Below, one piece after another: positions 14,076 through 44,577 of a stretch of 64,000 nt of DNA. This stretch comes from Acidimicrobiales bacterium (GTDB lineage Bacteria; Actinomycetota; Acidimicrobiia; Acidimicrobiales; JAVJTC01). The notes beneath the pieces were generated by a model that saw only the letters and a list, made by a program, of their open reading frames with translations, searched no databases and was not told where the DNA came from. Made by a program: the position numbers and the translations under genes. Within the stretch, counting starts at the first letter, position 1. Each line of letters begins with the position of its first letter. The stretch lies in assembly GCA_040219085.1 (NCBI GenBank), contig JAVJTC010000038.1, positions 16,199 through 80,198 of the forward strand, given 5' to 3'.

Positions 14076-14996
14076 GTGAAGATCGTGGACACGCAGTGGC
14101 ACGAGCCGGCCCCGGTGAGCGAGTGGCAGCCGGACGATGTCGAGACCCGCAGGGCGCTGCTCACCGAGTTGCTCTTCGCCAACATGAACGCGGTCGGCGT
14201 GGACGCGGTGCTCATCTTCCCACTCGAGGACCGGGGCTGGCCGATGTCGCTCGCCGCGGCACACCCGGACCGCTTCGCGTGGGTGCCGATGGTCACCGCC
14301 GCCGATGCGCCCGGTGACCCCGATCTGCCGATCAGGCCCGACGCGCCCGACCTCGAGGACCAGATCGCGGCTCTCGCAGAGGATCCGGGGTGTGCGGCGG
14401 TGCGGATCCTCGCGGCGTTCTTCGAGGAGGAGGTCGTCCGCCACAAGGCCGGTGGCAACGAGCGCGCGCTCGCCGCCTGCGAGAAGTACGGCCTACCCGT
14501 CTACTTCTTCTGCTCGGGGGAACCGGAACTCGCCGCGCCGGTGGCCGAGAAGTACCCGGACCTCACGATGGTCATCGACCATCTCGGGGTCCGCCAGCCT
14601 CCCCTCGAGGAGCCCGACGACCCCTGGTACGCGAAGTTCCCCGATGTCCTGGCCCTCGCGAAGTATCCGAAGGTGACTGTGAAGCTCGCCGGGTCGCCGG
14701 TGTTCTCCAAGACCGGGTGGCCCTACCGCGACACCTGGCCCCAGATCCGTGAGGTGGTCGACGCGTTCGGCGCCGACCGGGTCATGTGGGCCTCCGACGC
14801 GTCGCGGTTCTCGGGGCGGATCGGTTGGTCCATGCGCGTCGAGGAGGCGATGGTCCCGTACCCGGGCAAGCACAACTACGCAGAGTCGTTGTCGTTCGTG
14901 CGCGACACAGACCTGTTGAGTGACGAGGAGAAGGGCTGGGTTCTCGGGGGGTCGTCCACGAAGTGGCTGAACTGGCCCGCCGATGGCGGAGCCTGA
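14076..14996 (+). CDS. Amidohydrolase_2 family protein (shorter paralogue)
   Basis: GTG start follows GGGGGAA. Has MKIVDTQWHEP, VIDHLGV and MWASD, which are typical of PF04909-type metal hydrolases/decarboxylases. Confidence 0.7.
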   Translation: MKIVDTQWHEPAPVSEWQPDDVETRRALLTELLFANMNAVGVDAVLIFPLEDRGWPMSLAAAHPDRFAWVPMVTAADAPGDPDLPIRPDAPDLEDQIAALAEDPGCAAVRILAAFFEEEVVRHKAGGNERALAACEKYGLPVYFFCSGEPELAAPVAEKYPDLTMVIDHLGVRQPPLEEPDDPWYAKFPDVLALAKYPKVTVKLAGSPVFSKTGWPYRDTWPQIREVVDAFGADRVMWASDASRFSGRIGWSMRVEEAMVPYPGKHNYAESLSFVRDTDLLSDEEKGWVLGGSSTKWLNWPADGGA

Positions 14997-21054: not shown

Positions 21055-22302
21055 CTAGCCCACCGCGACGAACTGGCCGCCTTCGACCCGCACGACGACG
21101 AGCTCCGGCGTGGTGTTGTCCTGGCTGCCGCCGTAGGTGACGCTGCCGATCACGGTCTGTAGCCCGGCCGTCGCTGCGACCGCGTCCCGGACTGCGGCCC
21201 GGGTCAGCTCCGCGGCGTTGGCGATGGCGTTCAGCAGCACCTGGGTGCCGGCGTAGCCCTCGGCGGCGAAGACGTCGGGGGCTTCGCCCCAGCGCTCCTC
21301 GTACGCAGCGACGAAGTCTGCGACCTCCGGATTGGAAGCGAGGAACGGCACGAAGGTCGTCGAACCCTCGCCCGCATCGCCGGCCAGCTCGAAGATCTCC
21401 GCGTTGGTGAAGGGCGCAGCACCGATGAAGTCGGCCTCGATTCCCCGCTCCCGCGCCTGGATCATGAATGCTGACATCACGGCGATGTCGGCGTGGCTGA
21501 TCCAGATCGCGTCGGGGTTCTCGCCCGCCAGGTTCGAGACGACACCGGAGAGGTCCGTCTGGCCGGCTTCCGCGGTCTCAGTGCCGACTATCTCGTACCC
21601 GAGGGCTTCCGCGTTCGCGTTGAGGAGATCCACCTCGCCCTGCGATGAAGCGTTGGACGGGTCGTAGAAGATCCCGACGGTCTCGAAGCCGAGTAGATCC
21701 TTCATCTCGCCGACGGCGACAGGGAATGATGGTCCCGTGATGGGCGCGACCCGGAACATCCACTCGTTCAGAACGCCATCTTCGAGTGCTCCGGTCGACG
21801 TCGGAGCGAGAACCGTGAGCCCGATCTCCTCGGCGAGCGGGCTCGCGATCGGGATGGCTGTCGTCGCTGTCGGTCCGAGAACCGCCAGCACGCTGTCATC
21901 TCCTGCGAGCTGGCGCATCGATGGGCCAGCATTGGCCTGGTCGCTGGCGGTATCCTCCTCGACGGTCTCCACGATGATCGCGTCCTGGGATGCGTTGAAC
22001 TGCTCCACAGCGAGCACCGCGCCGTTCACGACCTTGCGGCCGAACGGCTCGATCGGGCCGCTGAGGTCCTCCATGAGACCGATCGTGACGGTCACCGTCT
22101 CGGCGGGCTCCTCGGTTCCGTCGTCAGAGTTGGTTCCGTCGTCTGTGGTTGTTCCGTCGTCAGAGTTGGTTCCGTCGTCTGTGGTTGCGCCGTCGTCACC
22201 GGCGGATGTGTCGTCGTCGTCACCGCATGCGGCGGCGAAGAGGCTCATGATCACAAGGAGCGACAACAGGAGTCGTGTCGGTCCGCGAAGTTGCTTCAGC
22301 AT
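21055..22302 (-). CDS. Liv-type (branched-chain amino acid/amide family) ABC substrate-binding lipoprotein
   Basis: Lipobox LFAAAC|GDDDD followed by an acidic repeat linker (DDGTNSDDGTTT)x2. The body resembles type I PBPs of the LivK family. Confidence 0.8.
   Translation of the reverse strand: MLKQLRGPTRLLLSLLVIMSLFAAACGDDDDTSAGDDGATTDDGTNSDDGTTTDDGTNSDDGTEEPAETVTVTIGLMEDLSGPIEPFGRKVVNGAVLAVEQFNASQDAIIVETVEEDTASDQANAGPSMRQLAGDDSVLAVLGPTATTAIPIASPLAEEIGLTVLAPTSTGALEDGVLNEWMFRVAPITGPSFPVAVGEMKDLLGFETVGIFYDPSNASSQGEVDLLNANAEALGYEIVGTETAEAGQTDLSGVVSNLAGENPDAIWISHADIAVMSAFMIQARERGIEADFIGAAPFTNAEIFELAGDAGEGSTTFVPFLASNPEVADFVAAYEERWGEAPDVFAAEGYAGTQVLLNAIANAAELTRAAVRDAVAATAGLQTVIGSVTYGGSQDNTTPELVVVRVEGGQFVAVG
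22115..22186. repeat. Perfect 36-nt tandem duplication inside the SBP linker
   Basis: GTTCCGTCGTCAGAGTTGGTTCCGTCGTCTGTGGTT occurs twice back to back and encodes the duplicated TTDDGTNSDDGT segment. Confidence 0.9.
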
Positions 22303-23243
22303 TCGCTTGTCCCTTCGGTTGTTTCTGAATGGTCGGTTGTTTCGATCGTGGTTGGGGCTGTCCCGTGGGCTCTGAGTCGGGGTCTTCGTCCTCGAGGTGG
22401 TCGCGGCCCGGTCGCCAGTGCTGCCATCCGCGCGACTGGGAGCCGTCGACGGGGGATGAGGCCGTCAGGTCTGACGAGCGTGACGACGAGCAGGACCAGT
22501 CCGAATAGCGTCGTCTTGCCTCCGAGGGGGAAGTCCCAGACCTCGGGGATGACGGTCAGAGCGGTCGCTCCGAGCAGCGGGCCATAGCCGGAGTAGACGC
22601 CGCCGACCACGGCGAAGACGAGGAAGTCGACCGACTGGGCGAAGGTGAGGTCTGGTGGCTGGATGACGCCGAAGAACCGACCGTAGAAATAGCCGGAGAG
22701 GCCGGCGAAGGCGGCGGACACCGTAAAGGAACCCGTGCGGACGAGCCAGGCCGGCACTCCGGCTGTCTCGACGAGTACCGGGTCGGCTCCGTAGGCGAGG
22801 ACGAAGAGTTCGGACCTCGTGCGGCGGATGAGCGCCAACTCGACGACCACGATGATCCCGGCGACGACCAGAACCGGCCAGATGCTGCTCAGCAGTGGAA
22901 TGCCAGCGAGTCCGGCCGCTCGTCCGAGTGGCTCCTGATCTGCGGCGATGATGCGGGAGATCTCGGCGAAGACGAGCGTAGCGAGGGCGAGGAAGAGGTG
23001 GTCGAGCCGCAACGTCAGCAGCGACAGGAGCAGGCCGGCACCCGCCGCCACGGCGATCGCGAGGAGGATGGCAACCGCGTCGCTGCCGCCGTCGCGGACG
23101 ATGAGAGCTGCGGAGTAGCCGCCGAAGCCCATCAGGGCGGCGTGGCCGACAGAGAGGCTTCCGGCGCGGATGGCGATCCCGAGGGACCACGCCGCGATCC
23201 CATTCACGAGGGCGAGAGCGAGGACTGCTTCCCAGTAGCCCAT
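22296..23243 (-). CDS. Liv-type ABC permease (LivM-like)
   Basis: Hydrophobic 315-aa ORF with SLSVGHAALMGFGGYSAALI. Starts immediately after the LivH-like stop. Confidence 0.8.
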   Translation of the reverse strand: MGYWEAVLALALVNGIAAWSLGIAIRAGSLSVGHAALMGFGGYSAALIVRDGGSDAVAILLAIAVAAGAGLLLSLLTLRLDHLFLALATLVFAEISRIIAADQEPLGRAAGLAGIPLLSSIWPVLVVAGIIVVVELALIRRTRSELFVLAYGADPVLVETAGVPAWLVRTGSFTVSAAFAGLSGYFYGRFFGVIQPPDLTFAQSVDFLVFAVVGGVYSGYGPLLGATALTVIPEVWDFPLGGKTTLFGLVLLVVTLVRPDGLIPRRRLPVARMAALATGPRPPRGRRPRLRAHGTAPTTIETTDHSETTEGTSEC

Positions 23244-24095
23244 CTACCGTTCCTTCAGGAGGCCGCTGGGGCGCACGATCATGACGACGAGCAGGAGCCC
23301 GAAGCTCACGGCTGTCTTCATGGCGCTGGATACGTACAGCTCGGCGACGGACTCGAGAATGCCGATGAGTAGTCCTCCGGCGACGGCTCCGGTCATGTTT
23401 CCGGCGCCGCCGACGAGCATCGCGATCACGCCTTTGAGGCCCGCGTTGGCTCCGATGAAGGGGCTGACGGAGCCGACGAGTACGGCTGTGAGGACGCCGG
23501 AGAGGCCGATGGCGAGGCCGGCGGCGACAACGGATCCGAGCTGAACGAGAGGCGTCGCAACGCCGTAGGCCGATCCGAGTTCCGGTGCCCATGACGTGGC
23601 TCGGAACGCGAGACCGATCATCGTGTAGCGGAAGATGACGAGCGTGATCGCAACGAAAACGAGGACAACCGCGACGACCGCGATCCCGGTCTTTCGGATG
23701 AAGATCCCGTTGATCTCGAAGACGCCGGTGGGGAAGAGGTTGGGCATGATCCGGAGCTGACTCCCCGCGATGTCCGAGAGGATCCCCTGCAGCAGGAGAC
23801 CGGCGCCGATCGACGCGACGATCGGCGCCATACGCGCCTTCTTGAGCATCGGCTGAACGGCGACGAGGTGGGTCACGAGGGTCAGCCCGGCTGTTGCGAG
23901 GACCGCGAAGATGATCGCCGGCGCGGCGCCGAAGTCCGCTGAGGCCCACCCGATGATCGCTGCGAAGGCGATGAGTTGGAGAAAGGCGAGGTTGACCGTC
24001 CGCATCGTCGCCCACACGAGGCTGAAGGCGAGCGCGACCAGAGCGTAGAGAGAGCCGGTCATTCCGCCGTCGATGACGGCCTGCAACTGCCTCAT
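23244..24095 (-). CDS. Liv-type ABC permease (LivH-like)
   Basis: Internal ATG at 24095 (MRQLQAVIDGGMTGSLYALVALAFSLVW) overlaps the upstream stop as ATGA. The rest of the 439-aa ORF upstream is Arg/Pro-rich shadow sequence. Confidence 0.8.
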   Translation of the reverse strand: MRQLQAVIDGGMTGSLYALVALAFSLVWATMRTVNLAFLQLIAFAAIIGWASADFGAAPAIIFAVLATAGLTLVTHLVAVQPMLKKARMAPIVASIGAGLLLQGILSDIAGSQLRIMPNLFPTGVFEINGIFIRKTGIAVVAVVLVFVAITLVIFRYTMIGLAFRATSWAPELGSAYGVATPLVQLGSVVAAGLAIGLSGVLTAVLVGSVSPFIGANAGLKGVIAMLVGGAGNMTGAVAGGLLIGILESVAELYVSSAMKTAVSFGLLLVVMIVRPSGLLKER

Positions 24096-24799
24096 GGCGG
24101 TGTCTCCTCGACCCCGAGGTACGACTCGAAGGACACTTCGGCCATTCGAACGTCGCCCATGGGTATGTCGCGTACCCGGCCGTCGTTCATCAGCGCTGCG
24201 TGGTCGGCGATCGACAGAACACCATGTGCCCGCTGCTCGACGAGGAGCATCGCGGCCCCGGTCTCGCGGAGTTTCCCGAGGGCTTCGATGATCTGATCCA
24301 CGATGACCGGTGCTAATCCGAGGGATGGCTCGTCGACGAGCAGCAGCTTCGGTGCGGTTTCCCATGCGCGGGCGAGAGCGAGCATCTGCTGCTCCCCGCC
24401 GCTGAGGGATCCGGCCGGACGGCGTAGTGCATGTCGCAGGATCGGAAAGCTCTCGAGAGAACGGTCCCGGTGGAGACGCGCCCACCGTCCGCTGAATCGG
24501 GCAAGGTCGAGGTTCTCCTCGACGGTGAGTTCTGGGACGATTCCACGTCCTTCGGGGATCCACGTCACGCCGAGCTTGTGGCGGGTGTGCGGGCTCATGT
24601 GCAGGAGTCCATGACCTTCGAGCTCAGCGGTGCCCTCGACCTGCCGGTGGACGCCCATCAGTGACTTCAGCAGCGTCGACTTTCCGGCACCGTTGGGTCC
24701 GACGATGACGAGTACCTCGCCCGCTGCGACCGAGAGGTCGATGCCGCGTATCGCCGTGACCGCTCCGTACCCCGCCGTCAGGTTCCGGACCTCAAGCAC
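24092..24799 (-). CDS. Liv-type ABC ATP-binding protein (LivF-like)
   Basis: GTG at 24799 gives VLEVRNLTAGYG. Walker A GPNGAGKST, signature LSGGEQQML and Walker B LLLVDEPS. Overlaps the upstream gene by 8 nt. Confidence 0.85.
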   Translation of the reverse strand: MLEVRNLTAGYGAVTAIRGIDLSVAAGEVLVIVGPNGAGKSTLLKSLMGVHRQVEGTAELEGHGLLHMSPHTRHKLGVTWIPEGRGIVPELTVEENLDLARFSGRWARLHRDRSLESFPILRHALRRPAGSLSGGEQQMLALARAWETAPKLLLVDEPSLGLAPVIVDQIIEALGKLRETGAAMLLVEQRAHGVLSIADHAALMNDGRVRDIPMGDVRMAEVSFESYLGVEETPP

Positions 24800-25541
24800 C
24801 GCTGACCCCCAGGTAGGCGTCCTTGACGGCGTCGTTCGCAAGCACATCTGCGGGAGATCCGCTGGCGATGAGCCGGCCGAGGTCGAGGACATGCAGTGTG
24901 GACGCGACCTCGCGCACGAAGGGGACGTTGTGCTCGATCAGCAGGACGGCGACCCCACCGGCAGCGACCCGTCGGAGCTGCCCGGCGAGGGTCACGACGT
25001 CCTCCGAGCTCATTCCCGACGCGGGCTCGTCCACGAGGAGGATGGCCGGTTCCCTCATCAGCGCTCGGGCGACTTCGAAGCGCCGGATCTCGCCAAGGGT
25101 CAGTTCGGTTGGATACCTATCGAGGAGTGCCGCAAGGTCGAGGTCTGCGACGACGCGCTGCACCAGTGCCTGCCAGTGTTCGCGCCTCTCGCGACTACCG
25201 AATCGTCGGAATGAGGCGAGAGGGATCAGGAGTTGTTCGCCGACTGTCAGGTTCGCGACGGATCTCGGGACCTGGAAGGTCATTGCCAGGCCGGCCCGCG
25301 CCCGCCGCGCGATCCCGCTGCGGGTGACGTCGACCCCGCGCAGGCTGACACTTCCCTGGTCCGGCCGCACCAGGCCCGCCATGACCTTGAGGAGCGTGGT
25401 CTTTCCCGCACCGTTGGGCCCGATGAGGCCCACGATGGCTCCTTCGGGTACCGCCATCGACACGCCATCGACAGCGCGGGACCCGCCGAAGGTGACACAG
25501 ATGTCACGGACCTCGAGGACGGTGCTGAGGTCGCCGGTCAT
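24792..25541 (-). CDS. Liv-type ABC ATP-binding protein (LivG-like)
   Basis: LEVRDICVTFGG, GPNGAGKTT and ILLVDEPASGM. Confidence 0.85.
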   Translation of the reverse strand: MTGDLSTVLEVRDICVTFGGSRAVDGVSMAVPEGAIVGLIGPNGAGKTTLLKVMAGLVRPDQGSVSLRGVDVTRSGIARRARAGLAMTFQVPRSVANLTVGEQLLIPLASFRRFGSRERREHWQALVQRVVADLDLAALLDRYPTELTLGEIRRFEVARALMREPAILLVDEPASGMSSEDVVTLAGQLRRVAAGGVAVLLIEHNVPFVREVASTLHVLDLGRLIASGSPADVLANDAVKDAYLGVSGA

Positions 25542-25571: not shown

Positions 25572-26822
25572 TCAGGACGCCGCGGCGACAGGGGTTTCCA
25601 TCCAAGCCGGGTCGACGGGGTGGCGGAACAGACGGCTGGCGTTGCCGTGTGTCATGAGGGCGATCTCCTCGTGGGTCGCGTCGCCCATCTGGCGGTGGAG
25701 GATCTCCTGGGTGTCGGGCCAGGTGCCGTCGCCGTGGGGATAGTCGGATTCGACCAGGATGTGGTCGACGCCGATGTAGTTGCGCAGTGCGAACCCGGCG
25801 GGGTCGTCGAGTGCGCAGAAATAGAAGTTGCGCTTGAGTACTTCGACGGGCTGGACGTCTTCGCCCACCCACGTGCCGAAGAACTCGTGGTACTTGAACG
25901 AGTGCTTCATCCGATCGATGAGGCCGGGCACCCAGGAGATCCCGCCCTCGGTGAGGACGATCTTGATCTCGGGGAACTTCAACGGGACCTTCGAGTAGAC
26001 CCAGTCCACCGCGGCGTGCCACGCGCTCATCGGGAAGAGCGCGGCGGCGACGTCGGGTGGGGCGTCGGGGGAGGTGACCGGTGTCGTCGAGGACGAACCG
26101 ACGTGAAGGCAGACCACCGTGTCGGTCTCCTCGCATGCCGCGAGTAGTGGATCCCAGTGACCCGAGTAGAGGCTCGGGTAGCCGAGCTTGTGTGGCGACT
26201 CGGTGAACGACAGCGCCTTGAAACCGCGTTCAGCGTTGCGGCGCACCTCTTCGGCGGAGACCTCGGGATCGTTGAACCACGTGATCTGGCAGGGAATCAT
26301 CCGGTCGGGGTAGGCGCCGCACCAGTCTTCGAGGTGCCAGTCGTTCCACGCGCGCATGGTCGCGAGGCCGAGTTCGTGATCCTCGAGCTCCGAGAAGCGT
26401 TGCCCCGCGAATCCGGCGAGCATCGACGGAAAACAGATCGACGCGTACACGCCGTTGATGTCCATGTCCCGGATCCGGGCATCGATCTGCCAACACCCGC
26501 GGCGCATGTCCTCGGTGCGTGTCGGCTCCACCGTGTATTCCGCCGGGGGTCGACCGGCGACGGCGTTGAGCCCGATGTTGGGAAGCTCCATCCCCTCCAT
26601 CTGCCAGACCTGGCGGCCGTCGGCCTGCTCGACCATCTTCGGTGCCCTGTCGGCGAACTTGGCAGGGAGGCGGCCCTCGAACATGTCGGGGGGTTCGACG
26701 AGGTGATCGTCCACCGAGATGATCGGGAAGTGGCGGGGTCGTGGGTCCGGCTCGGGTAGGAAGGTGACACTGTCGGTCCCCTCCGTCCGGAATGCGTCGG
26801 CGATGGATTTCTCTGCTGTCAC
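25572..26822 (-). CDS. Amidohydrolase_2 family protein (long paralogue)
   Basis: The GTG start overlaps the E2 catalytic ORF stop (GTGA). Has FPIISVDDHLVEPPDMF, ASICFPS and ILVESDYPHGDGTWPDT, all shared with the other long paralogues. Confidence 0.8.
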   Translation of the reverse strand: MTAEKSIADAFRTEGTDSVTFLPEPDPRPRHFPIISVDDHLVEPPDMFEGRLPAKFADRAPKMVEQADGRQVWQMEGMELPNIGLNAVAGRPPAEYTVEPTRTEDMRRGCWQIDARIRDMDINGVYASICFPSMLAGFAGQRFSELEDHELGLATMRAWNDWHLEDWCGAYPDRMIPCQITWFNDPEVSAEEVRRNAERGFKALSFTESPHKLGYPSLYSGHWDPLLAACEETDTVVCLHVGSSSTTPVTSPDAPPDVAAALFPMSAWHAAVDWVYSKVPLKFPEIKIVLTEGGISWVPGLIDRMKHSFKYHEFFGTWVGEDVQPVEVLKRNFYFCALDDPAGFALRNYIGVDHILVESDYPHGDGTWPDTQEILHRQMGDATHEEIALMTHGNASRLFRHPVDPAWMETPVAAAS

Positions 26823-27541
26823 TGGTCCTTCTCCTTACCATCATGTGCGGTCCCGACGCCTTCGGCGTCGAGGGACTCGATGCGGTCTCTCGAGGCGACG
26901 AGCATTCCTGCGAGTGACATGCCGTCGACCCAGCGGTGATCGAGGGTCCCCGTGAGGACCGTGGTCTCTCGGATTGCGAGTTCCCCGTCGACGACGACGG
27001 GCCGAGGCTTCACTGACGAGAAGCCGCAGATCGCGAGTTCCCCGGGGCGCATGAGCGGCAGGCCCCCGTCGATGCCGAGCCCGCCGATGCTCGTCACCGC
27101 GAGGCTGCCGACTCGGCGGTCGTCGGTATCGAGCTTGCCGTCGCGGGCACGCTGCACGGTTTCTCGAAGTGCTGCCGCCGTCGTCGACAGGTCGGGTTGG
27201 TCGCTGAACCAGATCGTCGGGACGACGAGACCCCTATCCGTGGCGACGGCCATGGCCACGCCGAGACGGTCTCGGCGGCGCCGCTTCAGCGTCGCCAGGT
27301 CGTACTCGTACCAGAGGGCGTCGACATCCCAGGCCGAGGCGGCGGCGGCCCACAGGAAGACACTGCCCAGCGTGAGTTCGGTCTCGTCGCCGGCGAGCAG
27401 TCGCCGGGCACCGCTGACGTCCACGTCGATCCACTGCGCGGCGATCGGCGTGTCGGCGGCCGCGCCCATGACCTTGGCCATGTGCGCGGCGGCCGGCCGA
27501 AGTCGCGACCAGTCGTCGCCGGTCTCGGCGGGGTCGCTCAC
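26819..27541 (-). CDS. 2-oxoacid dehydrogenase E2 acyltransferase, catalytic domain only
   Basis: TLDHRWVDGMSLAGML (DHRxxDG active-site motif) and the SLAVTSIGGLG region. GTG at 27541 overlaps the lipoyl-ORF stop (GTGA). No subunit-binding domain is present. Confidence 0.75.
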   Translation of the reverse strand: MSDPAETGDDWSRLRPAAAHMAKVMGAAADTPIAAQWIDVDVSGARRLLAGDETELTLGSVFLWAAAASAWDVDALWYEYDLATLKRRRRDRLGVAMAVATDRGLVVPTIWFSDQPDLSTTAAALRETVQRARDGKLDTDDRRVGSLAVTSIGGLGIDGGLPLMRPGELAICGFSSVKPRPVVVDGELAIRETTVLTGTLDHRWVDGMSLAGMLVASRDRIESLDAEGVGTAHDGKEKDQ

Positions 27542-27792
27542 GAGGTCACCGTGAGGCTGACGAGGTCCTCGCCCACCTCGACCCACTGGTCGACCTCGAC
27601 GTGGACCTCCGAGACGGTTCCGGCCCACTTGGAGGTGACATCGGCGACTGACTTCTCGGTCTCGACGACCATGACCGGCTGCAACATGTCGACCGTGTCT
27701 CCCGGCGAGACGAGTAGCTCGACGACGACGGCTTCGGTGAGGCCCTCGCCGAGATCGGGGAGCTTGACGGTCTTCGTGTCGTCACTTGGCAT
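27538..27792 (-). CDS. Stand-alone lipoyl-attachment domain protein (E2 N-terminal module)
   Basis: 84 aa. LPDLGEGLTEAVVVELLVSPGDTVDMLQPVMVVETEKSVADVTSKWAGTV carries the lipoyl-Lys context E-T-E-K-S. Confidence 0.8.
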   Translation of the reverse strand: MPSDDTKTVKLPDLGEGLTEAVVVELLVSPGDTVDMLQPVMVVETEKSVADVTSKWAGTVSEVHVEVDQWVEVGEDLVSLTVTS

Positions 27793-28780
27793 CGATCTGT
27801 CTCCTCACGGCGTCGCAGACGGCGTCGGTGGATGGGAAGTAGGCCGCTTCGCGGATCGGCGGAGGCGGCGGGTGGTTGGGCGACGAAACCACGGCGGGCG
27901 GCGCCTTCAGGTCGGCGAACGCGTGCTCCGCGATCTGGGAAACGACCTCCGACGCGATCGAACAGCGCCGGACTGCTTCGCTGATCACGGTCACCCGTCC
28001 GGTGGACGCGACGAGGTCGAAGATGCGCTCGGTGTCGAGCGGGGCGAGCGAGACGAGGTCGACGACCTGGCACGAGATGCCGTCCTCGGCGAGTTGGTCC
28101 GCGGCCTCGGTGGCCAGCGAGACCGTGGGCCCGTAGGCGACCAGCGTGACGTCTGTGCCGTCGCGCACGACAGCGCACCGACGGTGGTCGACGTCGGTGA
28201 CGACGGCGTCGGTTTCGATGCGCCGGCGCCGGTACTCGCGCTTGGGTTCCAGGAAGATGGCCGGCTCGCGGGCCTCGACGACGCTGCGGAGCAGTCCGCT
28301 GACGGTCTCGGCCCGGGACGCGGCCACGACGGCCAGGTCCGGGCTGTGCGCGAACAGGGCTTCGGGGCTCTCGGAATGGAATTCGGCGGCGTGGATCCGC
28401 CCCCCGAAGGGCACCCGCACAGTGACCGGCAGGGTGCCCTGGCCGTCCAGACGGGCGGGCATCTTCGCGAGGTGACCGATGATCTGGTTCAGGGCGGGGA
28501 GAACGAAGCCGTCGAACTGGATCTCGACGATGGGGTGGGCGCCGGCGAGGGCGCGGCCGATGGCGACTCCGACCAGACCGGCTTCCGAGAGCGGCGAGTC
28601 GATGACGCGGTCGGCGCCGTAGCGGTCCAGGAGACCGGCCGTGATCCGGAACACGCCACCGACGCGGCCGATGTCCTCGCCCATCAACACGACGCGCTCG
28701 TCCTCTTCGAGCAGATCCGCGAGCGTCGCCTTGATCCCATCGGCGAGGGTGAGGCCCGGTCGCCTGGTTCGGCTACTCAT
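27782..28780 (-). CDS. TPP-dependent 2-oxoacid dehydrogenase E1 beta subunit
   Basis: ATG at 28780 gives MSSRTRRPGLTLADGIKATLADLLEEDERVVLMGEDIG, typical of the E1-beta/transketolase-like pyrimidine-binding module. Overlaps E1 alpha by 8 nt. Confidence 0.85.
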   Translation of the reverse strand: MSSRTRRPGLTLADGIKATLADLLEEDERVVLMGEDIGRVGGVFRITAGLLDRYGADRVIDSPLSEAGLVGVAIGRALAGAHPIVEIQFDGFVLPALNQIIGHLAKMPARLDGQGTLPVTVRVPFGGRIHAAEFHSESPEALFAHSPDLAVVAASRAETVSGLLRSVVEAREPAIFLEPKREYRRRRIETDAVVTDVDHRRCAVVRDGTDVTLVAYGPTVSLATEAADQLAEDGISCQVVDLVSLAPLDTERIFDLVASTGRVTVISEAVRRCSIASEVVSQIAEHAFADLKAPPAVVSSPNHPPPPPIREAAYFPSTDAVCDAVRRQIDAK

Positions 28781-29684
28781 CACCGACCTCCTGTAGGTAC
28801 TCGGCGGCGGCGACGCGCAACTCGGCTTCGACCGAATTCTCGATCTCGTCGACCTCGTCGTCGGCGAGCCCGACGTCGGTGACGAGGCGGCGTCGTTCGG
28901 CGACGACGGGGTCACGGAGCCGGCGCCCCTCGACGGTGGCCTCGGAGCGGTACAGACCCGGGTCGTCAGACGTCGTGTGTGGTCCCAGTCGGTACGTCTC
29001 GAGCTCCAACAGCGTGGGACCGAACCCTGCCCGGGCCCGCGCGATCGCCCCGGAGACCGCTGTCTGCACGGCGCTCACGTCGTTGCCGTCGACGCGTTGG
29101 CCGGCGAACCCGTAGCCGAGGGCCCGCACATACAGCGACGACGCTGCGGTCTGGCGGGCCGTTGGCAGGGAGATCGCCCAGCCGTTGTTCTCACAGACGA
29201 ACACTGTCGGGGCACTGAAGACGCCGGCCATGTTCATGGCCTCGTGGACCTCGCCCTGCGACGAGGCTCCGTCGCCGAAGAAGACGACCGAGACGGTTTC
29301 AGCGCCGCGATGACGCTGTTCGATCGCCCAGCCGACGGCGTGGGCGAGTTGGCTGCCGACGGGGATCGTGTAGGTGAAGAATCGACGCTGTCGCCAGTCC
29401 CACGGTGTGTAGGAGTAGCGGCCGTGGAACCGCCACAGCTCCTGGGGGGTGACGCCCATGACGAGCCCCGCTCCGGGCTGCCGATAGGACGGGAACAACA
29501 TGTCCTCGGGTCCGAGTTGAGAAGCGACACCGACGTGGGACGCTTCCTGGCCCCGCGCTGGCGCGTAACCGGCGACGGCGCCCTGGCGTTGCAGCGCGAT
29601 GGTGACGTCGTCGAATTCCCGTGCCGTATACATGGCACGGTAGGTGTCGACGGCCGACGTCGAGGTGGCAACGTCGGAGCTCAC
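28773..29684 (-). CDS. TPP-dependent 2-oxoacid dehydrogenase E1 alpha subunit
   Basis: VVFFGDGASSQGEVHEAMNMAGVFSAPTVFVCENNGWAIS is the TPP-binding GDG...NN motif region. Confidence 0.85.
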   Translation of the reverse strand: MSSDVATSTSAVDTYRAMYTAREFDDVTIALQRQGAVAGYAPARGQEASHVGVASQLGPEDMLFPSYRQPGAGLVMGVTPQELWRFHGRYSYTPWDWRQRRFFTYTIPVGSQLAHAVGWAIEQRHRGAETVSVVFFGDGASSQGEVHEAMNMAGVFSAPTVFVCENNGWAISLPTARQTAASSLYVRALGYGFAGQRVDGNDVSAVQTAVSGAIARARAGFGPTLLELETYRLGPHTTSDDPGLYRSEATVEGRRLRDPVVAERRRLVTDVGLADDEVDEIENSVEAELRVAAAEYLQEVGDE

Positions 29685-30646
29685 GACACTGACGCCGATC
29701 CGGGGGCGAGAAACCGGTTCGCGATCCGTCCGATCCCGCTGATCCAGATCTCGACCGTGCTGCCGAAGTCCGGGTAGCGGCCCTGCTCGAGTCCGCAGCC
29801 CGTCGGGAACGTGCCGAGCCCGACGACATCTCCAGGGCGGACGTACTGGCTCTCCGAGAGGTGACAGAGGATGTGAGCGGGACTCCAGGCGATCTCGCCG
29901 GCCGGGCCCGACGCCCAGACGTCGTCGTCCACGCGGACCTCGAAGGTGAGCGCCGAGAGGTCGAGGTCGGGGTCGATGAGGATGGCGGGGCCCAGGACAT
30001 TGCCGGTCTCGAAATCCTTGCCCTTGCCGGGCCCGATCCCGGACTTCATCTCCTCCATCTGCCGGGTGCGCGCAGAGACGTCGTTGAACACGACCCAGCC
30101 GCCGATCGCGTGCTTCGCCGCTTCCTCGTCGAGGTCCCTCGCCTCTGCCCCGACGACGATCGCCAGCTCGGCCTCGAAGTCGAGCGTGTCGGCGTAGGTG
30201 GGGGCGATGACGTCGTCGGTGGGGCCGATGCAGGTGTGCGGGTCGCCCCGGTAGTAGGCGGGAAGACTCGACAGGTCGTCCTCGGTCTTGTCCATGCCGA
30301 TCGCCTTCATGCCGTCGAGGACGTGGGCGCGGTAGGCGGGAACGTCCCGCAGCGACGTCGGCTCGAGGGGTAACTCCAGGCGGACTTCGGCGCGGGGGAT
30401 CATGGCATCGGGAGCGTCGGACCCGCCGACCACCCGCTCCTCGATCGTGCGGAGTCCGTCCAGCAGGTCGTTTCGCCGGACGACGGCCTCCAGCGGGGAT
30501 GCCGGCGCGGACGTCGCAGCGTCGAACCCGACGGCCCAGGCCGCAGCGAGATCGACGACGATTCCGTCGTCGTCGCCGGAGAGGATCCCGACGCGGATTC
30601 CGGCGTCGTCCGGACGGCTGTAGCGGCAGATTCGAACGCCTGTCAT
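29681..30646 (-). CDS. Fumarylacetoacetate hydrolase (FAH) family protein
   Basis: The C-terminal FAH fold has FEAELAIVVG, GWVVFNDVSAR and GKGKDFETG. The ATGA overlap links it to the upstream gene. Confidence 0.8.
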   Translation of the reverse strand: MTGVRICRYSRPDDAGIRVGILSGDDDGIVVDLAAAWAVGFDAATSAPASPLEAVVRRNDLLDGLRTIEERVVGGSDAPDAMIPRAEVRLELPLEPTSLRDVPAYRAHVLDGMKAIGMDKTEDDLSSLPAYYRGDPHTCIGPTDDVIAPTYADTLDFEAELAIVVGAEARDLDEEAAKHAIGGWVVFNDVSARTRQMEEMKSGIGPGKGKDFETGNVLGPAILIDPDLDLSALTFEVRVDDDVWASGPAGEIAWSPAHILCHLSESQYVRPGDVVGLGTFPTGCGLEQGRYPDFGSTVEIWISGIGRIANRFLAPGSASVS

Positions 30647-31413
30647 GCGTGGTCCCCCGTGAGATTCGTAGCGATCGAGATCGGAAGGTCGAGGTGGCCG
30701 AGGACCGGGTGGGTCAAGCGGGCGGCGGTGGCCGTGTCACCCAGTCGGATGGGCGTTTCGGTTCCGAGCTGCACGAAGGGCGTGGCCGTCGCGGGCGGCG
30801 GGAGCGTTCCCGCCATGATTGCGTCCTTGACGAGCGCCAGGTACTCGGCGGCGGTGTCCGGGTGGGGTGCGGGCATCGGGTGTTCTTCCTGTGTGTCCCG
30901 GCCCGTGACGACGAGTACCCCGTCGCTGTCCGTGGTGTCGACGTCGACGGGTGGGCCGACCATCACATCGCCGAGGAGGCATGCATCGGCGACCAGTTGG
31001 CCTGCGGACAGCGTCCCCCAGTCGTCGGTGATCCGTGAGCGCGGTAAGTCCAATGAGAGATGCCAGGTTCGGATCAGCGCCGGGGTGGAGGGTTCGTCGA
31101 TGCGGAAGTCGACGGTGACCGCGAACTCCGCCTCGACGATCCGGGGTGCGACGGCGGGGGTCGCGTCCGGTGCGGTCAGGGCCTTCTCCACGACGACACC
31201 GACGACCGGTCCGTCGATCCCGAGCCTCCCACGGGCACGTTCGCTGCTCGCGACGATGCGATATCCGACCACCGGCGAGTCGAGGGCACCGATCACGGCC
31301 GCCTGTATGGCGAAGCCGTCCGCGAGCGAGAGTTCTGGAACGACGACGGATGCAGTCTCGTCAGCCCATGCCGCAGCGAGTGCGCGTCCAACGGCGTCGA
31401 GATCCGGCCTCAT
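30643..31413 (-). CDS. 2-keto-4-pentenoate hydratase-like (MhpD/HpcG-type) FAH-superfamily protein
   Basis: LSLADGFAIQAAVIGALDSPVVGYRIV resembles the hydratase/decarboxylase family N-terminus. The start is uncertain: ATG at 31413, 31458 or 31464. Confidence 0.6.
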   Translation of the reverse strand: MRPDLDAVGRALAAAWADETASVVVPELSLADGFAIQAAVIGALDSPVVGYRIVASSERARGRLGIDGPVVGVVVEKALTAPDATPAVAPRIVEAEFAVTVDFRIDEPSTPALIRTWHLSLDLPRSRITDDWGTLSAGQLVADACLLGDVMVGPPVDVDTTDSDGVLVVTGRDTQEEHPMPAPHPDTAAEYLALVKDAIMAGTLPPPATATPFVQLGTETPIRLGDTATAARLTHPVLGHLDLPISIATNLTGDHA

Positions 31414-31573
31414 GTCGTCGCCCCCCCGGGCCTCCCCTGTGACACTGGTGAAAACCATATACATGGATTCGGGGAGGGGCAAGGGGGTCTCGCCGATCTG
31501 ACCCGATTGCGCCGCATGCCGTCCTCGTCTCTGATGCGTCGGGGTTTCCGTCGTCCCGTCGGAGCGAGCAGTG

Positions 31574-31613
31574 CGGCCCGCCTCGGATCGATCGAGTCGT
31601 CCGAGGCGGGCCG
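31574..31613 (-). terminator. Strong GC hairpin in the 270-nt spacer between the SDR genes and the hydratase operon (terminator or leader attenuator)
   Basis: The arms CGGCCCGCCTCGGA / TCCGAGGCGGGCCG form a 14-bp perfect stem. The 12-nt loop contains TCGATCGA. Confidence 0.55.
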
Positions 31614-31705
31614 TGGTCGCCGTGTCAGGGGGATGACCGTCGACGACCCGCTCGACGAGCGCTACTCGGTGAGTCACGCTACCGGTACCGGGTGACCCCG
31701 TCAAG

Positions 31706-33514: not shown

Positions 33515-33732
33515 CTCACGACTCCTCGCTCGAATTGGCTGCCGCCCGACGCTGGGCGTCAGACTCCACCGGGAGTTCATCATCCAAAGTCGTCCCGGTC
33601 GCGCACCCACCGGTGCGGAGCCGATCACCCCGCTCGGTGGTGACACCGATCGGATGGCCACCAGTCACTTCTGAAGCCCTGGCCCGTCGAGCCCTACTGT
33701 CTGGGGGGCAGTTGTCGATCGGAAGGCGCCCA

Positions 33733-35031
33733 ATGACGACGAAGCCCGCCGTGGCCAAGGAACACCCGCTGCTCGAGGGGAACGACCCCTTCGGTGGCAA
33801 CCATCGCCGCGAACGCCACACGTTGCTGCCCGACCCGGAGCCGTTGCCGATCGCTCTACCCCTCGTATCGGTCGATGATCACCTGGTCGAGCCTCCCGAC
33901 GTGTATCTGAGTCGGGTTCCCACCAAGCTGCGAGATCGCGCACCGCAGATAGTGGAGGCGGATGGGATCGAGTACTGGCAGTTCGAAGATGTCAGGGAGC
34001 CCAACCGCACGGCCCAGATCTCCGTCGTCGGTCGTCCCCCTTCGGAGTGGACGCTCGAGCCCGTCCTCTTCGAGGAGATGCGCCGCGGTTCCTACGATGC
34101 CCGAGCTCGACTCCTCGACATGGACATCGCAGGCGTTGCAGCGTCACTCTGTTTTCCGTCAGTGCTCGTCGGATTCGCCGGCCAGCGCTTCTACCGCATG
34201 AAGGACGCGGAACTCGGGCTCGCCTCGATGCGCGCCTACAACGACTGGGTCATCGACGAGTGGGTCGCAACCAACCCGGAGCGCTTCATCGCCCAGCAGG
34301 TCACCTGGCTCCCTGACCCGCAGATCGCCGCGGACGAGGTGAGAAAGAACGCCGCTCGGGGGTTCAAGGCCGTCGCCTTCTCCGAGAATCCCGAGCGACT
34401 GGGATTTCCGTCTCTGTACACCAACCATTGGGATCCGTTCTTCAGGGCGTGCGAGGAGACCGAGACCGTCGTCAATCTCCACGTGGGTTCGTCGTCCGCC
34501 GTCCCGCGTCCGTCCTCCGATTCGCCGGGTGACGTCTCGGCGACATTGTTCCCCGTGAACGGGATCAACGCGAGCGTGGACTGGGTGTACTCGCGCGTTC
34601 CCGTCCGATTCCCGGCCCTCAAGATCGCCCTCTCGGAGGCCGGCGTCAGCTGGGTCCCGATGATCCAGGAGCGCCTGAAGCGCATCGAGAGCTTCCTGTC
34701 CTCTTCGCTCACGTGGCGAGGCGTCGACCGAACGCCTGTCGAGGTGTTCAAGTCCTGCTTCTGGTTCACGTCGATCGAAGATCACTGCGGTATCCGGGAG
34801 CGCCACACGGTCGGAATCGACCGGATCATGCTCGAGATGGACTACCCGCATCCGGACACTTCCTGGCCGGTGACGCAGGACACCATCGGCGTCGAGGTCG
34901 GCGGTCTGCCCGAGCACGAGCAGCGCATGTTGGCGTATCGGAACGCGTGTGCGCTCTACCGGCACTCCGAGTCCGCAGTCGAGGACTTCGAGCGCCGCAT
35001 CAGGGCATCCGAGACCGTGCCCGCTCAGTAG
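33733..35031 (+). CDS. Amidohydrolase_2 family protein (long paralogue)
   Basis: ATG follows GGAAGG. Has LPLVSVDDHLVEPPDVY, ASLCFPS and IMLEMDYPHPDTSWPVT. Confidence 0.8.
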   Translation: MTTKPAVAKEHPLLEGNDPFGGNHRRERHTLLPDPEPLPIALPLVSVDDHLVEPPDVYLSRVPTKLRDRAPQIVEADGIEYWQFEDVREPNRTAQISVVGRPPSEWTLEPVLFEEMRRGSYDARARLLDMDIAGVAASLCFPSVLVGFAGQRFYRMKDAELGLASMRAYNDWVIDEWVATNPERFIAQQVTWLPDPQIAADEVRKNAARGFKAVAFSENPERLGFPSLYTNHWDPFFRACEETETVVNLHVGSSSAVPRPSSDSPGDVSATLFPVNGINASVDWVYSRVPVRFPALKIALSEAGVSWVPMIQERLKRIESFLSSSLTWRGVDRTPVEVFKSCFWFTSIEDHCGIRERHTVGIDRIMLEMDYPHPDTSWPVTQDTIGVEVGGLPEHEQRMLAYRNACALYRHSESAVEDFERRIRASETVPAQ

Positions 35032-39771: not shown

Positions 39772-40962
39772 ATGCCGGCCGAGTTGAGTGACAGGCTCAC
39801 CGATCTGTACGTCATCGACACCGATTCGCACTGGACAGAGCCCTTCGACCTGTGGACGAGCCGAGCCCCCGCTCGCTACGCCGACGACGTCCCCCGGACT
39901 CGTATCAACGCCAAAGGTGACCCGGAGTTCGTGTTCGCCGGTGAACCGACCTTCGGCGCTGCGTTCTCGTACGTGCGCAAGGACGGCTCCAAGACCCGAA
40001 TGGCTGACATCGGCCTGGCGATGCCGATGGACGAGATGCATCCCGCATCATTCGATCCGATCGCCCGACTCGCGCTCATGGACGAGATGGGAATCTACGC
40101 CCAGCTCATCTACCCGAACGTGCTCGGTTTCCTCGCGCCGGTCCTGTGTCAGCGGGTCGAGCGCGATCTCGCCTATGCGGTGGTCGCCATCTACAACGAC
40201 GCGTGTGCCGAGATGCAGGAGGAGAGCCGCGGTCGGCTCTTCCCCCAGGCCGTTCTGCCCTTTTGGAACATTACTGACGCCATCAAGGAGGCGGAACGTG
40301 TCAAAGGCCTGGGCCTTCGGGGCGTGACGATGCCGGGCTCACCCGACATGGGTGGACTGCCGGATCTGGGAACCCCGCACTGGGATCCGCTCTTCGCCGT
40401 GCTCTCCGACCTGGGGCTGCCGATCAACATCCACGTGGGCTCGGCGAATCACGATGCCACCGAGGAGTGGACCCAGGCCTGGCCGTCACTGCCACGACGC
40501 GAAGCGGACAGCGTCAACACCGTGGCCCCGGAGTTGGCGAACTCCCGCTTCATCACCAACCTGATCATGAGCGACATCGTGCAGCGGTGGCCCGACCTGA
40601 AATGGGTGTCCGTCGAGAGCGGCATCGGTTGGATCCCCTACGTCCTGGAGCGCGTCGACTACTCCTACCGCGAGGAGCTTCCTGGCGTGGAGCCACCCGA
40701 CCGTCTTCCAGCGCTGGACCAGTTCCGCCGCAACGTCTACGCCACATTCTGGTTCGAGAACACAGCGCGCTTCGCCATCGACTATCTGGGAACGGACAAC
40801 GTCATGTGGGAGACGGATTTTCCCCACCCGACATGCCTCTACCCGTCGCCCGTCGAGCGGACGCTCGACGCCCTGGAGGGTCTCTCCGAGGAGGCGATCC
40901 GCAAGGTCATGCAGGACAACGCGGCTGATCTCTATTCGATCCCGCTTCCGGCGACCTCATAG
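39772..40962 (+). CDS. Amidohydrolase_2 family protein (long paralogue)
   Basis: YVIDTDSHWTEP, IYPNV and VMWETDFPHPTCLYP. Confidence 0.75.
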   Translation: MPAELSDRLTDLYVIDTDSHWTEPFDLWTSRAPARYADDVPRTRINAKGDPEFVFAGEPTFGAAFSYVRKDGSKTRMADIGLAMPMDEMHPASFDPIARLALMDEMGIYAQLIYPNVLGFLAPVLCQRVERDLAYAVVAIYNDACAEMQEESRGRLFPQAVLPFWNITDAIKEAERVKGLGLRGVTMPGSPDMGGLPDLGTPHWDPLFAVLSDLGLPINIHVGSANHDATEEWTQAWPSLPRREADSVNTVAPELANSRFITNLIMSDIVQRWPDLKWVSVESGIGWIPYVLERVDYSYREELPGVEPPDRLPALDQFRRNVYATFWFENTARFAIDYLGTDNVMWETDFPHPTCLYPSPVERTLDALEGLSEEAIRKVMQDNAADLYSIPLPATS

Positions 40963-40997: not shown

Positions 40998-42185
40998 GTG
41001 ACCGACGCTCCGACGATCATCAGTGCGGACGATCACGTCATCGAACCGCCGGACCTCTGGCAGTCACGGCTGCCGCAGCGCCTCCGGGCGGAGGGGCCCC
41101 GCGTGGTCGAACATCCCCGTGACGCCGCCAGCTACGACAAGGGTGCGAACTCCTGGCGGCTGCACGGCGACGGGACGGCACCGCCCGCGGCCTTCTGGCA
41201 CTACGAGGACAAGATCAAGCCGATGCAGCGGAACGAGGCCTCAGCGGGCTTCGAGGCGTCATCCATCGACATGACCCCCGTGAGCTTCGAGGAGATCCGA
41301 CCCGGCTGCTGGCAACCCGCCGCCCGACTCGAGGACATGACCATCAACGGCATCGCCGCGTCGATGTGCTTTCCGAACTATCCGCGATTCTCCGGACAGC
41401 TCTTCTCGGAGGGGCGCGACCGGGAACTCGGGCTTGCGTGCATTCGTGCCTACAACGACTGGATGGTGGAGGAGTGGTGTGGCGACAGCGGAGGACGGCT
41501 CATCCCGCTGTGCATCATCCCTCTGTGGGACGCGGAGCTGGCGGCAGCCGAGGTTCGTCGCAATGCCGAACGCGGAGTGCGGGCCGTGTCCTTCAGCGAG
41601 ATCCCTGCCTGGCTGGGCGTCCCGAGTATCCACTCCGGATTCTGGGACCCCTTCTTTAGGGCGTGTGACGAGACGCAGACCGTGGTCGCCATGCACATAG
41701 GGTCGGGCAGTCGCATCATCACCTCATCCGACGACGCGCCCTTCGCTGTGCAGGCCGTCATGATCTTCAACAACAGCGCGACATCGATGGTGGACTTCTT
41801 GTGTTCCGGCGTTCTCGCGCGATTTCCCGACCTGAAGCTCTTCTACGCCGAGGCACAGATCGGGTGGATCCCCTATGTCCTCGAACGCGCCGACGACACG
41901 TTCCACCGCCAACGATGGCTGTTTCCGGACAACGTCGATCAGCCACCGAGCTCCTACTACCACCACAGGGTCTTCTCCTGCTTCTTCAGTGACCCGGTGG
42001 GCATCGCTCTGTTGGACCGGGTCGGTGTCGATCAGGTGCTCTTCGAGACGGACTATCCGCACGAGACCGGGACCTGGCCGTCGTCTGAGAGCGTGGCCCG
42101 AGCCGAACTCGGACACCTGGACCCGGTCGACCGGGACAAGATCCTGCGTGCGAACGCGGTGGGGCTCTTCGGTCTCTCGGTTTGA
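40998..42185 (+). CDS. Amidohydrolase_2 family protein (long paralogue)
   Basis: GTG start. IISADDHVIEPPDLW, ASMCFPN and VLFETDYPHETGTWPSS. Confidence 0.8.
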   Translation: MTDAPTIISADDHVIEPPDLWQSRLPQRLRAEGPRVVEHPRDAASYDKGANSWRLHGDGTAPPAAFWHYEDKIKPMQRNEASAGFEASSIDMTPVSFEEIRPGCWQPAARLEDMTINGIAASMCFPNYPRFSGQLFSEGRDRELGLACIRAYNDWMVEEWCGDSGGRLIPLCIIPLWDAELAAAEVRRNAERGVRAVSFSEIPAWLGVPSIHSGFWDPFFRACDETQTVVAMHIGSGSRIITSSDDAPFAVQAVMIFNNSATSMVDFLCSGVLARFPDLKLFYAEAQIGWIPYVLERADDTFHRQRWLFPDNVDQPPSSYYHHRVFSCFFSDPVGIALLDRVGVDQVLFETDYPHETGTWPSSESVARAELGHLDPVDRDKILRANAVGLFGLSV

Positions 42186-43441: not shown

Positions 43442-43463
43442 CTCTTGACGTCAAGCGTCAGGT
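43442..43463. promoter_or_regulatory. Operator-like inverted repeat, site C: CTCTTGACG-TCAAG-CGTCAGGT (contains the 12-bp palindrome CTTGACGTCAAG)
   Basis: About 95 nt upstream of the E1 alpha start at 43559. Confidence 0.5.
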
Positions 43464-43558
43464 TGGTGCACCCGGGGGTTCGGGTGCCGGCGCAGGGGGT
43501 CCGGCGGTTTCCGGCCAGCTCGCACGTCGACGAGTTGCAGGACTACTGGGAAGACGAC

Positions 43559-44572: not shown

Positions 44573-44577
44573 GGCCG

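Follow-up and report, generated by a model that had tools for sequence, protein, structure and literature searches.

A split E2 acyltransferase without a subunit-binding domain in an operon of an Acidimicrobiales bacterium

The E2 subunit of textbook 2-oxoacid dehydrogenases is a single multi-domain chain in which the catalytic core serves as a scaffold, a peripheral subunit-binding domain (PSBD) recruits E1 and E3, and tethered lipoyl arms channel the intermediates. Here we describe an E2 that is divided between two genes and has no PSBD. It lies in a 64,000-nucleotide stretch from an Acidimicrobiales bacterium of the Actinomycetota (GenBank assembly GCA_040219085.1, contig JAVJTC010000038.1, positions 16,199 to 80,198 of the forward strand), and "the window" below means this whole stretch. 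One of the two genes encodes a stand-alone lipoyl protein (LP) and the other a stand-alone catalytic-domain acyltransferase (E2cat). Both sit in an operon of overlapping genes that also encodes the two subunits of a heterotetrameric-type E1. This split, PSBD-less E2 is real, conserved and rare.

A lipoyl gene and a catalytic gene in one operon

The central part of the operon has the following features, with positions counted from the first letter of the window.

28773 to 29684, minus strand: E1alpha subunit, thiamin diphosphate-binding, 303 aa; Pfam E1_dh (1.5e-69)
27782 to 28783, minus strand: E1beta subunit, 333 aa from the ATG at 28783 (start picked by eye); Pfam Transket_pyr and Transketolase_C
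27538 to 27792, minus strand: LP, the stand-alone lipoyl carrier protein, 84 aa; NCBI MEQ8719099.1, "biotin/lipoyl-containing protein"
27538 to 27541, minus strand: GTGA junction of LP and E2cat, read directly from the sequence
26819 to 27541, minus strand: E2cat, the stand-alone E2 catalytic-domain acyltransferase, 240 aa with a GTG start; NCBI MEQ8719098.1

The LP stop codon (TGA, 27540-27538) and the E2cat start codon (GTG, 27541-27539) share a GTGA by which the two open reading frames (ORFs) overlap by 4 nt, an overlap that suggests translational coupling. An earlier note made from the sequence alone had described this arrangement, a separate 84-aa lipoyl ORF whose TGA overlaps the GTG at 27541 of a 240-aa catalytic ORF, and its coordinates proved to be exact. 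The longest in-frame ORF for E2cat is 269 aa and begins at 27628, with an extension that is only Arg/Gly-rich and looks off-frame; the NCBI annotation has the 240-aa form rather than the 269-aa ORF. NCBI names both products in the Acidimicrobiales metagenome-assembled genome (MAG), calling MEQ8719098.1 "2-oxo acid dehydrogenase subunit E2", and both names are generic, which leaves a gap in annotation for this pair of genes.

The smaller protein is a putative lipoyl-accepting domain of the E2 type. Residues 7-79 of LP match Pfam Biotin_lipoyl (PF00364) with E=4.6e-17, and the best NCBIfam matches are the lipoyl domains of E2p and E2o. The predicted lipoyl lysine is K47 (codon 27654-27652), placed at the hairpin tip of the Biotin_lipoyl fold in the E2-type context VETEKS and invariant across 10 aligned LPs. 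Three other identities were considered for LP and rejected. A biotin carrier is ruled out by the lack of an MKM motif and by the best matches being E2 lipoyl domains. GcvH is ruled out by scores below the family cutoffs (Pfam GCV_H, PF01597, 19.5 bits against 22.2; NCBIfam GcvH, 20 against 117), and the AcoC-type E2 of acetoin dehydrogenase (NF011457) by 35.7 bits against a cutoff of 307. In the lipoyl-domain alignment, the C-terminus of LP comes no more than a few residues from the last conserved column. LP thus ends at the domain edge with no tail, and there is no Ala/Pro linker.

The larger protein carries the catalytic domain. E2cat covers positions 9-226 of the 232 in Pfam 2-oxoacid_dh (PF00198; E=4.6e-35), and the match begins at residue 14 of the 240-aa protein (residue 43 in the numbering of the 269-aa ORF), so that the core does lie close behind the start, as the note had proposed. 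The DHRWVDG motif, which the note had reported together with the VETEKS context, occupies residues 201-207 (26941-26921). Both the His and Asp of the general DHRxxDG motif are kept, as is a hydroxyl residue (the Thr in AVTSIG, aligned with TITN/TLSN of canonical E2s). In a profile search of the PDB the best match of E2cat was 1b5s, the E2p of G. stearothermophilus (1e-44). An AlphaFold2 model reached a pLDDT of 91.2 and a pTM of 0.86, with disorder limited to residues 1-10 and 229-240, and its top Foldseek matches were the E2b core of the M. tuberculosis branched-chain 2-oxoacid dehydrogenase (BCKDH; 3l60/6zzn, TM 0.81-0.86) along with other E2 cores. E2cat is thus predicted, with confidence in the model, to be a complete E2 catalytic fold. 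It has the DHRxxDG motif and the fold resembling chloramphenicol acetyltransferase (CAT) that are expected of an E2. The lipoyl domain, which in an E2 belongs to the same chain through flexible linkers, is on a separate protein, and the PSBD (PF02817) that recruits E1 and E3 is missing.

The absence of a PSBD was pursued beyond the two ORFs. No operon protein matched PF02817 in Pfam. A hidden Markov model (HMM) of the PSBD, built from 63 canonical E2s, gave no match in the window, whichever the frame (the best E, 0.13, came from off-frame ORFs); the same model was positive in canonical control loci (3e-17 to 3e-6) and negative in split loci. With these controls, a PSBD concealed in another frame or in some other part of the operon can be ruled out. 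Together with the Pfam result and the LP alignment, they confirm the earlier claim that neither a PSBD nor an Ala/Pro linker is encoded between the two ORFs. Likewise, the operon has no E3 gene, again as first claimed, and no E3, LplA/LipB or LipA was found among the window ORFs scanned (Pfam on plausible genes, with an E3 redox-motif scan that covered all window ORFs of at least 70 aa). Nor did phmmer against all six-frame ORFs detect a second lipoyl or E2 gene in the window. The genome-wide check for lplA/lipB, E3 and other free lipoyl proteins that had been proposed was thus carried out on the 64-kb window, where it returned none of them among the ORFs scanned.

The E1 partners are of the kind that accompanies canonical E2s. 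E1beta is an ordinary alpha2beta2-type subunit. It overlaps both LP and E1alpha by 11 nt, and its nearest structures are the E1beta of the T. thermophilus 2-oxoacid dehydrogenase (1um9, 2.4e-74) and that of the G. stearothermophilus pyruvate dehydrogenase (PDH; 1w85, 3.6e-68). Against the NCBIfam model PDH_E1_alph_x, E1alpha scores 328 bits, under the cutoff of 411.

Conservation of the split among relatives

For a deterministic gene structure such as this one chance is not the question, and the answer has to come from conservation in relatives. A word-indexed search returned one close relative (P0002, 237 aa, 78% identity); the other matches were at most 42% identical and mostly full-length lipoyl-PSBD-catalytic proteins. 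P0002 is found on two independent Logan contigs, directly downstream of an 84-aa lipoyl gene and again with a GTGA junction. By BLASTP, this locus (L001) is about 78% identical to the window in the catalytic protein and 82% in the lipoyl protein, and downstream of E2cat it has the same Amidohydro_2 gene followed by two ABC ATPases. The sequences that flank the junction differ between the two loci, ...QVDE* / MNDDADW in L001 versus ...TVTS* / MSDPAETGDDW in the window. Between them dN/dS is 0.20 for LP (dS 0.66), 0.21 for E2cat (dS 0.80) and 0.07 for the amidohydrolase; the values near 0.2 show LP and E2cat both to be under purifying selection.

When 1.84 billion representatives were searched exhaustively with HMMER, only two matches fell below 1e-30, and the best matches included several complete catalytic-only proteins of 225-260 aa. 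Several of these more distant relatives could be placed in their gene context, as listed here with identity to the window protein and, in brackets, protein sizes in aa.

P0122 (L004), 38%: E1alpha-E1beta-LP(85)-E2cat(237)-HpcH aldolase-ACAD
P0278 (L034), 35%: ECH-E1alpha-E1beta-LP(85)-E2cat(240)-CoA-transferase
P0275 (L036), 35%: ACAD-E1alpha-E1beta-LP(83)-E2cat(237)-MaoC pair
P0172 (L006), 32%: E1alpha-E1beta-LP(83)-E2cat(235)-MaoC...
P0128, 33%: LP-E2cat-CMD-ABC-SDR
P0127, 33%: C-terminal end of a lipoyl ORF directly upstream
Conexibacter MAG (L007) and Acidimicrobiia MAG (L008), 33-36%: the same E1alpha-E1beta-LP-E2cat module

The four-gene module recurs at 32-38% identity in L004, L006, L007, L008, L034, L036 and L039. 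The junction in L008 is GTGA, as in the window and L001; in the other relatives LP and E2cat overlap by 1 nt or 8 nt, and the frame of E2cat relative to LP varies. Such varying lengths and frames exclude a conserved programmed frameshift and fit with translational coupling. One further relative, P0121 (49% identity), is truncated where its contig stops, so that a split could not be told from a fusion.

The catalytic proteins that stand alone belong to a family of their own. A neighbour-joining tree of 224 catalytic domains, drawn without support values, puts the window E2cat in a nine-member clade made up entirely of stand-alone proteins. When a profile of this clade was run against 5.8 billion proteins, 16 matches scored at least 265 bits, all of them 229-242 aa long with PF00198 as the only domain; the next scores lie at 192 bits, where the canonical E2s begin. 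The clade, LP and PSBD HMMs were also used to class 88 fetched loci. Fourteen of these scored at least 241 bits with the clade HMM, and none of the fourteen has a PSBD: eleven have a separate LP gene directly upstream, two are cut by a contig end, and one (L037) has an orphan E2cat. The canonical loci among the 88 scored at most 158 bits and are nearly all fused, with the PSBD in the same ORF. These counts come from collection scans with a single narrow peptide pattern and carry the bias of that choice. The E3 redox-centre motif was found in 0/16 split loci versus 14/33 canonical loci with at least 1.5 kb downstream (Fisher p=0.0017, in a test that includes some near-duplicate loci).

The split is therefore a family trait, and LP and E2cat are separate genes under selection. 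This bears out the suggestion in the earlier note of a natural, PSBD-less architecture, and the comparison with orthologues that it had called for shows the relatives in this family to be split and without a PSBD. The window's family appears to be small and centred on the Actinomycetota.

In L037 (2158-2865) the clade member P0279, of 235 aa, has no adjoining lipoyl gene, and no E1beta was detected in the 8.6-kb contig. Its neighbours are SDR, ECH, Rieske and Amidohydro_2 genes.

A second split lineage, unrelated to the first, was found in cultured bacteria, Sphingomonas zeae DSM 100049 (L020, 5499-6408) and Microbacterium ureisolvens CFH S00084 (L028, 5591-6531). Here E1alpha and E1beta are accompanied by a 79-aa lipoyl protein and a catalytic-only E2 of 221-233 aa, and there is no PSBD. 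The lipoyl protein has a PQWGMG motif, and that of L028 is closest to the lipoyl domain of AcoC (74 bits, cutoff 307); the L028 module is preceded by a LysR regulator and followed by two SDRs. Four metagenomic contigs (L051, L058, L065 and L070) provide more split cases outside the clade, and thus the split architecture appears in more than one E2 lineage.

Other non-canonical E2 architectures were seen among the nearest canonical matches (P0281, P0283, P0369/P0374). One of them is a 372-aa protein with a PSBD and a catalytic domain and no lipoyl domain. Others, of about 406-421 aa (Dactylosporangium, Microbacterium lushaniae), have lipoyl and catalytic domains and no precomputed PSBD match.

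A mobile lipoyl carrier and its alternatives

The reading that we prefer, at a probability of roughly 70%, is that the two genes make up a naturally split, PSBD-less E2 of a 2-oxoacid dehydrogenase with heterotetrameric E1, encoded in an overlapping catabolic operon, with LP as a mobile carrier. The lack of a covalent link and of a PSBD, and the absence of E3 from all 16 split loci, argue that LP may act in trans. In the simplest model E1alpha2beta2 would decarboxylate a pathway-derived 2-oxoacid and reductively acylate the lipoyl group of the free 9-kDa LP. The acyl-dihydrolipoyl-LP would then diffuse to E2cat, where the acyl group would be transferred to CoA, and a lipoamide dehydrogenase, whose gene would lie elsewhere in the genome, would re-oxidise the dihydrolipoyl form. 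LP would thus behave like the H-protein of glycine cleavage and not like a swinging arm tethered to a scaffold, and the overlap of the LP stop with the E2cat start would hold the two proteins near a 1:1 ratio.

Such a mechanism is plausible for several reasons. An excised lipoyl domain, unlike free lipoate, serves as a substrate of E1 (PMC6270654), and the actinobacterial OdhA uses lipoyl domains supplied in trans (10.1101/2020.07.24.212647). Furthermore, the neighbours of the module across the related loci are enzymes of acyl-CoA metabolism, including enoyl-CoA hydratases (ECH), MaoC dehydratases, acyl-CoA dehydrogenases (ACAD) and a CoA-transferase. The module has the appearance of a portable "2-oxoacid to acyl-CoA" cassette that has been set into different catabolic islands.

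The oligomeric state of E2cat bears on whether any scaffold remains. In E2s a C-terminal 3_10 helix mediates the contacts between trimers, and in the Actinomycetota there are, as a precedent, E2 cores that C-terminal changes have reduced to trimers (10.1101/2020.07.24.212647). Canonical chains end in PxR[ILM]LL plus about 2 residues, and 208/241 canonical E2s, versus 10/20 clade proteins, have at least two hydrophobic residues at the three C-terminal knob positions. The window E2cat reads LDAEGV at the knob site and continues with about 12 hydrophilic, disordered residues, and two clade members terminate before the C-terminal helix. A non-hydrophobic knob with a disordered tail suggests that E2cat is probably a trimer or other low-order oligomer and not a 24- or 60-mer scaffold.

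A stronger form of the proposal is that the system is fully dissociated, with the free 9-kDa LP diffusing between E1alphabeta, a trimeric E2cat and a housekeeping E3, so that there would be neither a scaffold nor active-site coupling. We regard this form as possible and hold it tentatively. If it were correct, LP could be shared with a further E1, such as the orphan pair at 43445-45618 (see below), and the system would be a natural counter-example to the need for a multi-domain E2 core.

Several points weigh against the preferred reading. The N-terminal segment of E2cat has a motif, [ED]W..[LF]..V[ED]RAMARRM, that is common to 18/18 listed clade members, and its Trp is invariant (W11 in the window protein, about 27511-27509, roughly 10 residues from the N-terminus and just before the catalytic core). 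No Trp stands at the equivalent position of the canonical E2 consensus, and the segment is a possible docking or trimer-arm element that could still hold a complex together. The knob is weak evidence and heterogeneous, half of the clade retaining two hydrophobic residues. The tree without support values, the narrowly based locus counts and the near-duplicates in the E3 comparison also count on this side. Finally, the sequence analysed spans 64 kb, and the model takes it for granted that lpd, lplA or lipB lies outside it in the genome; that LP is lipoylated is inferred, as are the substrate, the acyl acceptor and the E3 partner.

In the main rival explanation the genes are truly split and the proteins nevertheless hold together in a stable complex, by contacts that do not involve a PSBD, so that LP does not diffuse freely. 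The candidates for such an interface are the Trp-containing N-terminal segment of E2cat, which is the obvious one given its conservation, docking of LP on E2cat or E1, and an unrecognised adaptor. Tight translational coupling of E1beta, LP and E2cat would favour co-assembly, and the partly hydrophobic knob in half of the clade fits with a complex as well. There is also a precedent for doing without a PSBD: a report on the eukaryotic oxoglutarate dehydrogenase complex (OGDHC) describes an E2o that lacks this domain and recruits E3 through the adaptor MRPS36/KGD4 (PMC9974300). However, that E2o has its lipoyl domain in the same chain and a 24-mer core, and here the module has no conserved additional small ORF or adaptor-like gene, LP carries no tail past its domain, and E3 is linked in none of the 16 split loci. 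We consider a stable complex unlikely, though it deserves to be taken seriously.

According to a second rival, the enzyme is not a CoA-forming 2-oxoacid dehydrogenase: its E1 would cleave an acetoin- or diketone-type substrate, or the acyl acceptor would be something other than CoA, as in the glycolyl-ACP system QncN/QncL/QncM (ACP, acyl carrier protein). ACP-loading PDH-like systems with unusual domain arrangements are indeed known (PMC6335953). The AcoC-like lipoyl protein of L028 and the E1alpha score below the PDH equivalog cutoff point the same way. Nonetheless, the window ORFs scanned and the gene lists of related loci contain no ACP, non-ribosomal peptide synthetase or polyketide synthase gene, the acyl-CoA enzymes that neighbour the module in those loci fit an acyl-CoA product, and E2cat has the catalytic motif and the fold of a CoA-dependent E2. 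This rival is improbable.

It was also proposed in the earlier note, as the alternative to a natural split, that a contiguous lipoyl-PSBD-catalytic chain had been broken by a recent frameshift, by pseudogenisation or by an assembly error. In its favour, canonical E2s consist of one chain, and the relatives in databases are mostly proteins of 380-430 aa with all three domains. However, the 4-nt overlap leaves no room for a PSBD between LP and E2cat, the split recurs in independent assemblies at 78% and at 32-38% identity with differing junctions and overlaps, dN/dS is about 0.2 in both genes, and all 16 family members from the profile search are stand-alone. The split in relatives down to about 32% identity and the selection on both genes refute this explanation, to which we give almost no weight. 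Least probable of all is a programmed ribosomal frameshift at the GTGA that fuses LP and E2cat into one chain: a 4-nt overlap could invite the idea, but the overlaps of 1, 4 and 8 nt put E2cat in differing frames in relatives, there is no conserved slippery sequence, and the fused product would still lack a linker and a PSBD.

The preferred reading, a split E2 with a mobile LP, can be set against known systems. The parts are ordinary members of the lipoyl-domain and E2-catalytic families, and it is the architecture that departs, in the covalent linkage of lipoyl domain to core and in the PSBD. Compared with canonical E2s (G. stearothermophilus PDH E2p; M. tuberculosis or T. thermophilus BCKDH E2b), the LPDLGEG...VETxK lipoyl context, the catalytic fold and DHRxxDG are the same, and E1alpha and E1beta are partners of the same type as in canonical alpha2beta2-E1 complexes. 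By contrast, the window has two polypeptides, no PSBD, no Ala/Pro linker, no linked E3 and a knob that is not conserved. The glycine cleavage H-protein is a small, free lipoylated carrier that visits separate enzymes without a scaffold, including E3 (the L-protein). Its likeness to LP would be functional, since LP is of the E2 lipoyl type and its predicted partners are E1alphabeta and an E2 acyltransferase rather than the P- and T-proteins.

Other comparisons come from proteins in which E2 domains have been rearranged. OdhA/Kgd, which works with a trimeric E2p in Corynebacterium and Mycobacterium, resembles E2cat in having an E2 catalytic domain without a lipoyl domain of its own. In OdhA, however, it is joined N-terminally to a homodimeric E1o and borrows lipoyl domains from a full-length, PSBD-containing E2p, whereas here E2cat is a 240-aa protein by itself, the lipoyl domain is a free single-domain protein and E1 is split into alpha and beta. 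The PDH-like cassettes QncN/QncL/QncM and SclQ1-4 have been described with lipoyl and acyltransferase domains, no PSBD, and E3 outside the cluster (PMC6335953). Like the module here they are PDH-derived with rearranged domains. In those systems the lipoyl and acyltransferase domains are fused (in QncL also to E1beta) and the acyl group goes to an ACP; in the window the genes are separate, and no ACP or PP-binding match was found among the proteins scanned. Passages of an archaeal survey list single-domain lipoyl proteins as a class, with no link in those passages to a catalytic-only E2. The Pelobacter "lipoyl carrier protein LarG" was considered as a relative and set aside as GcvH-like and unrelated. 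In the literature searched we found no description of a split or stand-alone lipoyl protein paired with a catalytic-only E2.

A conserved family with a free LP, no PSBD and no linked E3 would show that this chemistry runs in nature without a scaffold. It therefore bears on the old question of what purpose the giant 2-oxoacid dehydrogenase assemblies serve, and offers a natural test of the need for an E2 scaffold. E1alpha, E1beta, LP and E2cat would also constitute a minimal four-protein cassette for engineering the conversion of 2-oxoacids to acyl-CoA. The cultured carriers of the second lineage, S. zeae DSM 100049 and M. ureisolvens CFH S00084, make these ideas accessible to experiment.

The rest of the operon and the window

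Four further features flank the module.

30643 to 31704, minus strand: uncharacterised ORF of 353 aa, true start uncertain; its stop overlaps the FAH start by 4 nt
29681 to 30646, minus strand: fumarylacetoacetate-hydrolase-family (FAH) protein; Pfam FAA_hydrolase (1.2e-43); its stop overlaps the E1alpha start by 4 nt
25572 to 26822, minus strand: Amidohydrolase_2-family protein, 416 aa; Pfam Amidohydro_2 (1.4e-24); its start overlaps the E2cat stop by 4 nt
21055 to 25541, minus strand: branched-chain-amino-acid-type ABC transporter directly downstream, with two ATPases, two permeases and a binding protein

The overlapping genes thus run in the order 353-aa ORF, FAH, E1alpha, E1beta, LP, E2cat, Amidohydro_2, and the ABC transporter comes next (Pfam ABC_tran/BCA_ABC_TP_C, BPD_transp_2 and Peripla_BP_6). 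The 353-aa ORF is probably part of the same operon, because its stop overlaps the FAH start. It has no Pfam, NCBIfam or significant PDB sequence match, and a resemblance by eye to an MhpD-type hydratase was unsupported and was dropped.

A second E1alpha/E1beta pair lies at 43445-45618 on the plus strand, 40-41% identical to the E1 of the operon and followed by an SDR gene (45615-46412, plus strand). This pair is an orphan, as neither next to it nor anywhere else in the window was a lipoyl, E2 or E3 gene of its own found, and it might borrow the free LP and E2cat.

The gene content of the window marks it as a putative dense catabolic island. Six Amidohydro_2 paralogues are present (14076-14996, 25572-26822, 33535-35031, 39772-40962, 40998-42185 and 47485-48636), together with several SDRs, two nitronate-monooxygenase-like genes, a cyclase and a Baeyer-Villiger/FMO-like monooxygenase (52841-54535). 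A 920-aa ORF on the plus strand (54570-57332) has two BPD_transp_2 regions, an ABC ATPase and a branched-chain ABC C-terminal motif, and appears to be a permease-ATPase fusion of a Liv-type transporter. Further along the same strand, a 795-aa ORF (58114-60501) joins TLP1_add_C, the C-terminal domain of thiolase-like protein type 1, to an enoyl-CoA hydratase domain.

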